In this document: positions 24,001 to 27,000 of the stretch, piece after piece
How the letters are laid out: every line of letters starts with the position of its first letter
Numbering within the stretch: position 1 is the stretch's first letter
Origin: Candidatus Sulfomarinibacteraceae bacterium
GTDB lineage: Bacteria > Acidobacteriota > Thermoanaerobaculia > Thermoanaerobaculales > Sulfomarinibacteraceae
Direction: 5' to 3'
Length of the DNA stretch: 64,000 nucleotides
Assembly (NCBI GenBank): GCA_963796455.1
Contig: CAWCLO010000008.1
Location: forward strand, 89,361-153,360
Position numbers: made by a program

Positions 24001-27000
24001 GACGAAAAATCGCTGGTTCTTCAATCGTCAAGGTGAGCTTTGTTCTGGCGGGAGATGACTCTCGCCTTCCGGCATCGCTGGTGGGTGAATTCAACGATTG
24101 GGATCCGGCGGCGGATCCATTCCGTCGCCGTTCCAACGGGACCGTCAGCGCCGTCGTGTCGCTCCAGCAGGGGGAATCATGTCGTTTCCGATATCGCAGC
24201 CATGATGGTTCGTGGTTTGACGAAGAAAATGCCGATGGTTACGATGCGAATTCGTACGGTACGAACGATTGTGTGGTGACGGTCTGAGTTTCTACCGGAT
24301 CTGGGTCTGTTCCCCGAGTTCGAAGGGAATCCGGGCCGTGCTCTCTTCGAGATCGATCATCAGCACCCATCTTCCAGCCTGGACTCCCACCATTGGAGTG
24401 AAGACGAGCGGTCCGCTGCACCACTGATCCGTCTGCAGACGGATGGAGGACCGATCTGCAAAAGTTCCGGCCGGGGCCAAAAACCACACTTCGCAGGCCC
24501 GGCCGAGCCCTTCGAGGCGGCGCGCCGGCGGCCCCCAGGCATCCATTGATTCGAGAGCGATTCGGATTTTGGGAGCAACGCGCTGGAATTCTTTTCTTTC
24601 CATCAGAGGCAGTTCGCGCCCGTCATTCGTGCGAACCCTGATGTTCTTGGCGTCGACCGTCGGAGACCCACCAGGGGCGGCGGTGAGCGAAATTTTGAGA
24701 ACCAGCCACTCGTGGCCGAGGTGGTCGCTCGCCCAACGATAGATCAGCTCGGCCTTGATTTCAGGCCCGTCGTAGAGGGCGACATAGCGGGAACTCTGGG
24801 TGACTCCAGGGGTATCGGTGGGATAAGAAGTCGAGCACGCGGCCAGGATCGTGAGGATCGGAAAGAGAAGGAGCCGATGTGTCCGCATGAGACCTCCGGG
24901 CAAAAGTATACGAAGACCCGCAGGCGACGGGTTTGGTTTTTTGCATATCCGGTTCGCCGTGGCCCCGAGTTCGAGTCCGAGTTCGCGTCCGTGCCCGAGG
25001 ATTGCAGCGGCAGCGACAGTGTCCAGGGGCAGCGTCAGTGAACAGCGACAGCGACAGTGAACAGTGTTCAGCGGAACGGCCTCGGCTGCTGCGAGGTAGA
25101 GAGGCCCCTCACGAAAAGAAAAAGCCGCCCGTTTGGGCGGCTATGAACTGAAGTGGCGGGGCCGACGAGACTCGACACCGCCGGCGGCTGCGGATGTCGG
25201 AGCGCGCAATCGGCAGGGCGGAGTGGGCTGCGACGACCCGCAGGCGACGGTGCTGCGAGGTAGAGAGGCCCCTCACGAAAAGAAAAAGCCGCCCGTTTGG
25301 GCGGCTATGAACTGAAGTGGCGGGGCCGACGAGACTCGACACCGCCGGCGGCTGCGGATGTCGGAGCGCGCAATCGGCAGGGCGGAGTGGGCTGCGACGA
25401 CCCGCAGGCGACGGTGCTGCGAGGTAGAGAGGCCCCCTCACGAAAAGAAAAAGCCGCCCGTTTGGGCGGCTATGAACTGAAGTGGCGGGGCCGACGAGAC
25501 TCGACACCGCCGGCGGCTGCGGATGTCGGAGCGCGCAATCGGCAGGGCGGAGTGGGCTGCGACGACCCGCAGGCGACGGTGCTGCGAGGTAGAGAGGCCC
25601 CTCACGAAAAGAAAAAGCCGCCCGTTTGGGCGGCTATGAACTGAAGTGGCGGGGCCGACGAGACTCGAACTCGCGACCTCAGGCGTGACAGGCCTGCGTT
25701 CTAACCAGCTGAACTACGACCCCGCACAAACTCTTTCGGGTCTTTGGTGGGAGGTGGGGGATTTGAACCCACGACTCCCTGCGTGTAAGGCAGGTGCTCT
25801 GACCCCTGAGCTAACCTCCCGACGGCGAACCGTTGGGAGCGACATGGTAGAGGCCAACGCGATGCATGTCAACCCTGAAGGGTCGATTTGAACTTCACCG
25901 AGGAAGCGGTGGCCGGGGAGAGCGGATCTGCTTTACAACGCCCGTCGTGATGCAATAACCTGGGTCCATGAGCGACCCTCACGAAATATGGCAATTCGGC
26001 CAGTGGATCGCGCGCCGGGAGAGCGGCGCGGCGCGCCTCGGATGGTCGAACGGCGAGTTGATCCTGCGCCTCCACAACGGACGAATTCGATTCGTCGAGG
26101 GTGTTGATCATCTTGAACTCGCGCGCCGGTTGAGTTGTGAACCAATCGGCAATGTCGATCTCCTCGAAGAAGCGCGTGCATTGGCCAGGGATCGGCAGAT
26201 CGCCGAGACCTTTGCCATGGGCGCAGCCAAGGAGCTTTTGCAGGCCAAACTTCGAGAGTGGTTCCTCGATCCGGAGAGGGAACTCGAAGTCGTCGAGGGT
26301 GACCCCGACGAGGTTGCCGGCGCGACGATCTCGATCACTCACACCCTGGTCGAACTCGTTCTGTCCGACACCACCGGCAAAACGGCAGCGGCGATCTTGC
26401 CCGATCTCGACGTTCTGTTGAGCCGGTCGCCCGATTTTCTCGATCTCTATGCTCCCCTGCGTCTGTCGGAGGAGGCGGATCTCATCGTCTCCAAGATCAC
26501 CGGCGAGCGCACCGCCGGCGAGGTGGCCGGTCGATCCGATCACGGACTCGACGAGGTCCATCGTTTGTTGGCTGCACTGGTTGTTACCGGGATCCTCGAG
26601 CCCGAACCGAGCCTCGTTGTGGACGGTGATGTCGATCTCCTGCCGATTGACGACCTCGATTCAAGTCCACAGCGGCGAATTCCTGTTATGTGGATCGTAG
26701 GAGCGGCCGTTGTGCTGGTGTTGGCTTTGGCAGTCATCGCCTGGATGACGAGGAAATCAGACCAAACAGCGCCGACGACATCGGCTGAGTCGGTGGAATC
26801 GGTTGGACCCGGATGGGCACTGGTCATCGATATGGGTTGCGAACCTCAGGATTTGCAACGAATTTCGGAGAAGGCCAACGAGGATCCGAAATTGAAACCG
26901 GTTGCCGCGGACTCGGGAAACGATGATCCTTGTTGGCGATTGGTGTGGGGTCGCTATCCAACACGGAAGGATGCAGCGGCGGCTGTCAGCGAGATTCCGG

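Follow-up and report, generated by a model that had tools for sequence, protein, structure and literature searches.

Why should a bacterial tRNA gene be followed by tandem units that each end in a copy of its own 3′ end? In the window, a stretch of 64,000 nt from Candidatus Sulfomarinibacteraceae bacterium (assembly GCA_963796455.1, contig CAWCLO010000008.1, positions 89,361 to 153,360), such units adjoin the 3′ side of a tRNA-Asp gene. A genome-wide survey's note had read them as a new class of gene-less, tRNA-targeting element that crosses over in the T-loop as folded DNA, through a hairpin att site, and brings its own replacement tail. We examined the build of these units, their relatives in other genomes and known systems, and the routes by which the array may have arisen.

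A tandem array of tRNA-tailed units behind tRNA-Asp

TRF places the array at 25087–25668 of the window, with a period of 164 bp and 3.5 copies that are 99% alike, and so bears out the note's description of it. The adjoining tRNA-Asp(GTC) gene (25647–25723, minus strand; ARAGORN, Rfam) is intact and CCA-encoding, and tail comparison puts the junction at TT^C in its T-loop. It belongs to a Val-Asp pair whose first gene is tRNA-Val(TAC) (25745–25820, minus strand; ARAGORN, Rfam). On the same strand lie unit 1 (25483–25646, 164 bp; TRF and unit comparison), unit 2 (25318–25482, 165 bp, core at 25339–25419) and unit 3 (25154–25317, 164 bp, core at 25175–25255), the latter two defined by unit comparison and model matches. 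Unit comparison also gives a truncated fourth unit (25087–25153, minus strand, 67 bp) that retains the terminator, the inverted tail copy and the core's first bases.

Read in the direction of the tRNA, all on the minus strand, unit 1 begins with an intrinsic-terminator-like hairpin and T tract (25606–25635, from sequence and predicted fold), followed by an inverted tail copy, now decayed, that ends opposite C56 (25585–25605, sequence comparison). Next comes an 81-bp hairpin core, the last base of which is one unpaired T (25504–25584; matches to our models R1 and R2, and covariation), and finally a direct copy of tRNA-Asp positions 56–76, through CCA (25483–25503, tail comparison). The tails start at C56, just where the T-loop junction proposed in the note would place them.

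The inverted tail copy within each unit was absent from the earlier description. It is a perfect 21-mer ending opposite C56 in two genomes of the genus (G005 and G017) and is down to 4–8 bp in most others, with its final four bases invariant in 12/12 aligned Asp rows.

Every core in the tRNA-Asp arrays has a terminator ahead of it. An Rfam scan of the array returned tRNAs only, with no match to RtT (RF00391) at E≤5. Three flanking ORFs had no Pfam match. The units, gene-less and 164 bp long, hold no integrase gene between tRNA and displaced tail, the arrangement by which tRNA-integrating islands are recognized in PMC4383910 (general criteria also from PMC3184786). The head-to-tail joint is present in contigs of two DNA sequencing runs, either of which may be related to the window's own sample; such contigs cannot tell circles from arrays, and neither circles nor movement were observed.

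The same layout recurs at other tRNA genes. Among 56 ARAGORN rows, at least two extra tail copies each were found for Asp, Pro-GGG, Met and Leu-CAG and one for Phe, and the units of all five carry an inverted match to their own tRNA; the single copies that the note also listed at Val and Ser are neighboring tRNA genes. Its count of eight tRNA- or tmRNA-abutting rows among 24 TRF rows (period at least 60, score at least 200) replicates, but only four of these carry tails: those at Ala-CGC, Leu-CAA and tmRNA are arrays of another REP-like repeat, and the remaining one is a pair of adjacent tRNA-Val genes. Sequence models join the Asp, Pro and Leu-CAG cores. The note had joined only the first two; Leu-CAG is linked by the broader model R2, which matches the Leu-CAG units of the window genome, absent from its training set, at 45 bits. 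Met does stay unlinked, as at E≤5 R2 misses the Met units, the Phe units and the 115-bp Asp units.

Asp units also occur across the genus, as claimed. Of 24 tRNA-Asp loci fetched, 23 were readable: 13 hold at least one full unit, four a full core without a full tail and six remnants only, so that some remnant is present at 23/23, with the genomes being kin and these tallies, like the covariation counts below, hence not independent. Unit periods at the 13 loci are 158–167 in nine and 115–117 in four. Distal units are truncated at differing points, and trailer types are found in both orders (G014 versus G011).

Evidence for a fold selected at the DNA level

In an alignment of 12 Asp cores, compensatory double changes occur at 13 of 32 pairs, a level reached in none of 500 shuffles, and the covariation described in the note is upheld. 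On the tRNA strand (12 rows, 76% identity, RNAalifold structure), a single cell in 347 is G-T (0.3%), and there is one one-sided change against 44 two-sided changes; on the opposite strand, G-T rises to 4.6%, with five one-sided against 44 two-sided changes. SRP RNA of the same bacterial family (30 rows, 89% identity), scored by the same method, has 14.6% G-U and 70 one-sided against 21 two-sided changes. The note's wording, not one G-U cell or one-sided change, comes close to holding for the RNAalifold structure; it fails in a hand-set 32-pair register with 11 G-T cells (ten at one pair) and five A-C cells. Because one T-G pair is conserved in 10/12 rows of that register, the apparent lack of G-U depends on the register chosen. 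Among 51 distinct rows of the wider element family, with that pair set aside, G-T and A-C cells are about equally common (27 and 28).

The loops carry a strand bias of their own. GNA triloops form stable DNA hairpins; they are found on the strand opposite the tRNA in 46 of 68 triloops and on the same strand in one, and GNA motif counts again favor the opposite strand (62 versus 6). This antisense strand gives the better fold in 12/12 Asp rows. The core further contains conserved mismatches and bulges, plus the unpaired T at the junction. Its one- and two-sided changes and wobble cells, which are unlike those of SRP RNA, together with its GNA strand bias support a fold selected as DNA rather than RNA, as the note had proposed.

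The core belongs to a dispersed, mobile mini-element

The Asp-array core is part of a gene-less element with two hairpins, 100–140 bp long, that is dispersed within this bacterial family. Model R1, built from Asp cores only, has matches in 22/25 genomes of the genus, with up to 24 copies (G017); R2 finds the element in 7/14 genomes of the family and in 0/106 others sampled. Named records with the exact element pattern are mostly Thermoanaerobaculia. Four GTDB pattern matches (L141, L160 and L168, three of 22 inspected, and L074) appear to be coincidental similarities within genes and were rejected.

Most copies lie away from tRNA genes. In a set of 58 contexts comprising most, not all, non-seed R1 matches, five clearly end at a tRNA tail, as do five of 36 contexts in a second set (10/94, with up to three more ambiguous); the remaining inspected copies sit within REPs, transposase arms and heptamer arrays. 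The tRNA-specific targeting envisaged in the note is at odds with this distribution.

Free copies consist of an extra short 5′ hairpin and the long core hairpin. Of the 58 contexts, 11 were left out because no 5′ hairpin or flank could be parsed. In the other 47, TT closes the left flank in 40, the element's last base is T in 46, and TT is present at both ends and in the target in 39; a wider count gives insertion 3′ of TT in 64/73 contexts. G stands ahead of the TT at many junctions. Insertion is precise, with no longer target duplication. Targets in the 47 contexts fall into 12 families, led by heptamer arrays (16/47), which run on in phase across the inserted element, and arms flanking Y1 genes (10/47), with a REP flanking a RAYT gene, T-loops and others among the rest. 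At one target, four copies of the same IS110 abut the same REP; three of these REPs are empty and one holds the element exactly at TT^C. Because one filled site stands against three identical empty ones, we conclude that the element is mobile; the note's suggestion of a gene-less mobile element is well founded in this respect. The element's first two bases covary with the linker in 72/73 contexts, so that the joined element would fold as a dumbbell, and the 164-nt Asp unit is likewise predicted to fold as a dumbbell or rod.

Target choice appears only weakly biased towards hairpin loops. A lax test gave no enrichment (24/47 versus 238/580 in controls), and a strict test requiring a stem of at least 6 gave enrichment (11/47 versus 27/1160) that was carried by two of the 12 target families. 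Pairing between linker and target is slightly above expectation (82/141 versus a shuffle mean of 70); guide pairing was set aside as a targeting rule, as its registers differ between subfamilies. Many free copies with common flanks may have spread inside host repeats. In the window genome (G000), each of the eight R2 matches stops at C56 in a tRNA tail, and the patterns of free copies do not occur; copies linked to tRNAs may thus persist longer than free ones.

Several loci bridge the free element and the tRNA arrays. In a tRNA-Leu array of G013 (L201), the 193-bp units still contain the whole element, seated in the T-loop of a duplicated T-arm, and a 185-bp array at L225 combines the complete element with a duplicated flank, away from any tRNA. 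At L256, the element lies on the opposite strand of a duplicated tRNA-Leu T-loop, which is the junction geometry of E. coli described below. Fragments of tRNA-Lys or tRNA-Phe broken at the T-loop, with no array, occur at L091, L102, L178, L210 and on contig C6 of the window genome, where tRNA-Lys att-like fragments are present. Together, these cases show within one lineage the free element, filled and empty sites, spare-tail insertion, arrays of complete elements, remodeled arrays and both orientations.

Comparison with tRNA-linked repeats and other small mobile DNA

The layout of the unit is not new, and the claim of a new class is not supported. Units that lie behind a tRNA gene and each end in an ~18–21-nt copy of its 3′ end are what is called tRNA-linked repeats (TLRs), and at Asp, Pro and Leu-CAG a shared core is moreover clamped by inverted and direct T-arm matches, with Met and Phe unlinked by core. 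Knowledge of TLRs dates back to 1978 (Egan and Landy 1978 and Rudd 1999, as cited in PMC8144298), and according to passages of PMC8144298, E. coli has 22 of them in ten loci, with one to five per locus and function unknown; a section of bioRxiv 2024.07.17.603846 also calls the mode of action of rttR unknown.

The E. coli TLRs (the tyrT/tyrV 178-bp repeats, RtT/rttR and RrA/B/F) likewise form one to five head-to-tail units behind a tRNA, each of which has an inverted match to the T-arm, a structured core and, as a direct copy, an 18–21-nt tail of its own tRNA; in the tyrV trailer there are three 178-bp units with a 19-nt tail. Their GNA loops also favor one strand (24 versus 1), and read antisense, the E. 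coli core follows TT or TG and starts ACTC with a GCCC-TNC-GGGC hairpin, as here. The tail start differs, being C56 in the Asp units and A58/A59 in E. coli, the latter a TT^C-type site on the antisense strand; this corresponds to the opposite orientation, the geometry of L256.

At the sequence level, the two do not join: R2 misses the E. coli TLRs at E≤5, and the best RF00391 score in the window genome, 19.5 bits and outside the array, falls below the model's gathering threshold of 45 bits. We therefore regard the array as a TLR by build, not as a member of RF00391. Free copies off tRNA genes are common in this bacterial family, whereas the 16 RtT-model matches in K-12 cluster at six loci; of 11 of these 16 viewed, five have their own tRNA's GGTTCG ahead of the core, two a one-base variant and four neither. 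A motif common to the 5′ end of one element subfamily occurs ten times in K-12, all inside RtT matches (control 0). Since it was picked after seeing E. coli and occurs once in three family genomes, it leaves homology with the E. coli TLRs unproven.

As dispersed, gene-less DNA hairpins of ~100 bp that nest in other repeats and have filled and empty sites, the elements resemble the REPIN/REP-RAYT and TIRtron-TIRYT systems, with which they also share tandem clusters that include flanks and Y1 genes in the genomes. PMC3116915 describes REPIN clusters as tandem repeats that take in flanks, and PMC3733652 places TIRtrons in Acidobacteria. The elements differ from REP-RAYT in their TT junction, versus C^T, and in that no Y1 gene flanked by the element was found in the genomes and Y1 regions inspected; nor was the GTAG/GGAG-tagged inverted REP doublet of REPINs present at the element ends inspected. 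The Nostoc small dispersed repeats (SDR), reportedly described by Elhai et al. in 2008, are likewise tiny structured repeats in heptamer arrays, but only ~25 nt long against 100–140 nt for our element. CTX phage attP is a folded single-strand site with extrahelical bases by the junction. The folded single strand of the integron attC site, with extrahelical bases beside the junction, offers a similar likeness (PMC8266576); no linked integrase and, in the contexts inspected, no attC-type end consensus accompany the element.

What is new is that the core of a TLR is part of a dispersed mobile DNA hairpin that also resides at many non-tRNA places. In the freely readable literature, "tRNA-linked repeat" returned PMC8144298 and an editorial only, a search that extended to neither Rudd 1999, Williams 2002 nor Elhai 2008, which are subscription papers; the words "mobile", "integration" and "horizontal" are absent from the accessible text of PMC8144298. 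A mobile DNA hairpin is supported by our data; a new tRNA-specific class with an integrase is not.

Candidate enzymes for mobilization

No mobilizing enzyme was found. We regard a Y1/HUH nuclease of the RAYT/TIRYT type, acting in trans, as the best if tentative candidate, at slightly under an even chance. It is favored because two target families are Y1-associated repeats and because bases 5′ of both junctions are fixed. The links are an arm family used as target that flanks a Y1 gene (L125) and REPs that surround a RAYT gene together with an element stump (L128). The window genome has six Y1 matches, none beside an array; a RAYT-type protein is encoded at 61471–62445 of the window. No Y1 gene adjoins a full core in five relatives' genomes, none is flanked by the element in 14 Y1 regions, one stump excepted, and each of 20 orphan 5′ hairpins examined proved to belong to a gene-less element or a stump rather than a gene-carrying parent. 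A Y1 gene between two tRNA-Pro tails (L052, G017) was rejected as such a parent: it has terminal arms of its own and is best read as a later insertion. According to PMC8266576, the RAYTs described so far cleave at C^T or C^A, and cleavage was lost when CT was changed to TT, so the TT site follows no known RAYT rule.

An IS110-type recombinase could instead move the same element in minicircle form, with TT as its 2-bp core, by analogy with ssr9 and ISPpu9. The presence of TT at both ends and in the target suits this route, as do IS110 genes in 5/5 genomes tested, one family of which inserts at the same REP, and ISPpu9 moves a gene-less module into REPs (PMC12288879); a gene-less module in a REP beside an IS110 is thus common to both systems. 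We consider it unlikely all the same: three of four IS110 copies are without the element and have no ends in common with it, which also led us to reject the IS110 beside one element as its parent, and the element here is not bounded by IS110 ends or core. IS110 elements are targeted by bridge RNAs, a mode that does not match widely different targets, and the 12 target families differ widely in sequence. A hairpin that covaries strictly and carries bulges is more in keeping with a folded single strand.

The note's own proposal, a tRNA-specific element whose folded hairpin serves as the att site of a tyrosine recombinase (attC- or CTX-like) with one unit gained per integration, accounts for the conserved bulges, the unpaired T at the junction, the G ahead of many junction TTs and the occurrence of trailer types in both orders. 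CTX attP is a folded hairpin of this build, which the inverted and direct target copies around a stuffer resemble. This proposal nevertheless looks improbable given how many copies lie away from tRNAs, the lack of an attC-type end consensus and an inverted copy so short in most genomes; in addition, a PF00589 search of the window genome yields only XerD, an XerC-like protein and an intI stump, all on other contigs and none near an array.

RNA role or neutral scar

Might the units instead be retained because they yield read-through RNAs that are freed at their CCA ends, in the manner of RtT or RrA/B/F? In E. coli, TLRs undergo transcription and processing, according to passages of PMC8144298, and the remnant retained at every readable Asp locus would suit such a role. 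One RNA-library contig covers the tRNA end and unit 1, at a depth of 2.5 that possibly reflects DNA and with no strand or ends. The window-genome unit is also predicted to form an acceptor-like helix with GCCA; this pairing is gone in most genomes of the genus, and a mimic of aminoacylation or RNase P substrates was dropped because the helix is not conserved. With a wobble pattern unlike SRP RNA, a better fold on the antisense strand in all 12 rows and a terminator ahead of every core, we hold an RNA explanation to have little chance of being correct.

A neutral scar, in which an old att-site duplication was amplified by slippage and its palindromes perfected by template switching around an immobile core, would explain the variably truncated distal units and the tRNA-Lys att-like fragments, but is very improbable and for the core largely refuted by filled and empty sites, by the same core at unrelated sites and by the conservation of mismatches and bulges, which template correction should have removed, though array growth may still be described in this way.

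A proposed origin for the array

With moderate confidence, we read the array as a TLR that derives from a REPIN-like, non-autonomous element acting as a hairpin of single-strand DNA. In its free form, 5′ hairpin plus core, this element inserts precisely 3′ of TT, with the T-loop GTT^CRA being one such site among several. Insertion into a sole tRNA copy would destroy it, so that survival would be expected only where a spare tail is the target or where the event duplicates the tail. At tRNA-Asp, an inverted tail copy starting opposite C56 may then have replaced the 5′ hairpin, perhaps by fold-back copying from the foot of the core with the unpaired T skipped; alternatively, the four invariant bases that close the inverted copy could represent the 5′ end of the element itself. 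Snap-back around the terminator alone was discarded, the spacers on either side of the stem not being complementary. Terminator, inverted tail, core and tail together are predicted to fold as a rod, like the circle of the free element, and further head-to-tail copies of the unit could arise through unequal recombination, or through its excision and return to the same TT^C together with a replacement tail. The array is probably selfish or neutral DNA, with any RNA role secondary.

More speculatively, and with appreciable doubt, TLRs in general, E. coli's included, might be single-strand-DNA hairpin mini-elements inserted at the T-loop TT^C on either strand. The tRNA tail and terminator would have been recruited as a second hairpin, giving self-rescuing units, which an HUH nuclease could return to an essential gene harmlessly.

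A core shared with a mobile hairpin suggests how TLRs arise, and makes their origin testable, with the TT junctions as defined substrates and with candidate enzymes at hand. It moves attention from an RNA role of TLRs to their mobility as DNA, and would supply a further targeting rule for very small mobile DNA in bacteria.

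Variant units and other repeats at tRNA genes

At tRNA-Asp, units of 115-117 bp make up a second unit type, found at loci L015, L017, L019 and L020 in related genomes, in which a pyrimidine-rich loop replaces the long hairpin and the four-base clamp (the invariant end of the inverted tail copy) is unchanged. In the window's own genome (G000), the tRNA-Phe trailer carries a single 232-bp unit (C10:148555-148787), whose direct copy begins within the anticodon loop, with the inverted copy spanning the anticodon arm and D stem; R2, the broader sequence model of the hairpin-core family, does not connect this unit to that family.

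Tandem arrays of 110-113 bp lie directly behind tRNA-Ala(CGC) (C7:279297-279641), tRNA-Leu(CAA) (C9:20543-21077) and tmRNA (C10:37121-37462) of G000; they represent another dispersed REP-like repeat, lacking tail copies. Seven false 'tRNA-Asp' calls of 90-95 nt (C1:256404, C1:372006, C4:346277, C7:143691, C10:210759, C10:275636 and C10:353452) all belong to a single dispersed repeat that folds like a tRNA.

Sequence context within the window

Directly past the array's truncated end lie CAG-type short repeats of 6-7 nt (24970-25075). A near-match of 20 nt to the core's left arm, identical at 19 positions (24915-24934; E 0.17) and situated in the promoter region of the gene downstream, may be due to chance.

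The tRNA-Leu(TAA) at 57722-57806, called without CCA, is followed by a segment with many mobile genes, and the hairpin behind it resembles a Pro unit of the related genome G017. The contig end (63938-64000) carries a Leu(TAA)-like 3' part of another kind. Directly downstream of a frameshifted IS110-type transposase (~60101-61126, + strand; PF02371) is a REP-associated tyrosine transposase gene (61471-62445, +; NF047646 above cut-off), enclosed by inverted terminal arms (whole element, 61420-62481, +). Two tRNA-Pro tails in G017 (L052) enclose a close relative of this gene.

Segments behind tRNA-Lys and a non-tRNA target

Behind the end of tRNA-Lys (G000 C6:1-12200 and C10:12132; L178) lie segments of 7.4 and 4.7 kb, each ending in a Lys fragment that runs from the anticodon onward, with nested hairpin inserts in the T-loop of these fragments. 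Their cargo consists of small genes, with a toxin-antitoxin pair nearby; a tyrosine integrase was not found on the contig with these segments. The tRNA-Lys locus is a cassette-like array.

At L072 (related genome G008), a protein gene carries the element at its 3' end, and the end of the gene is directly duplicated; the arrangement resembles that of a TLR, with a target other than a tRNA.
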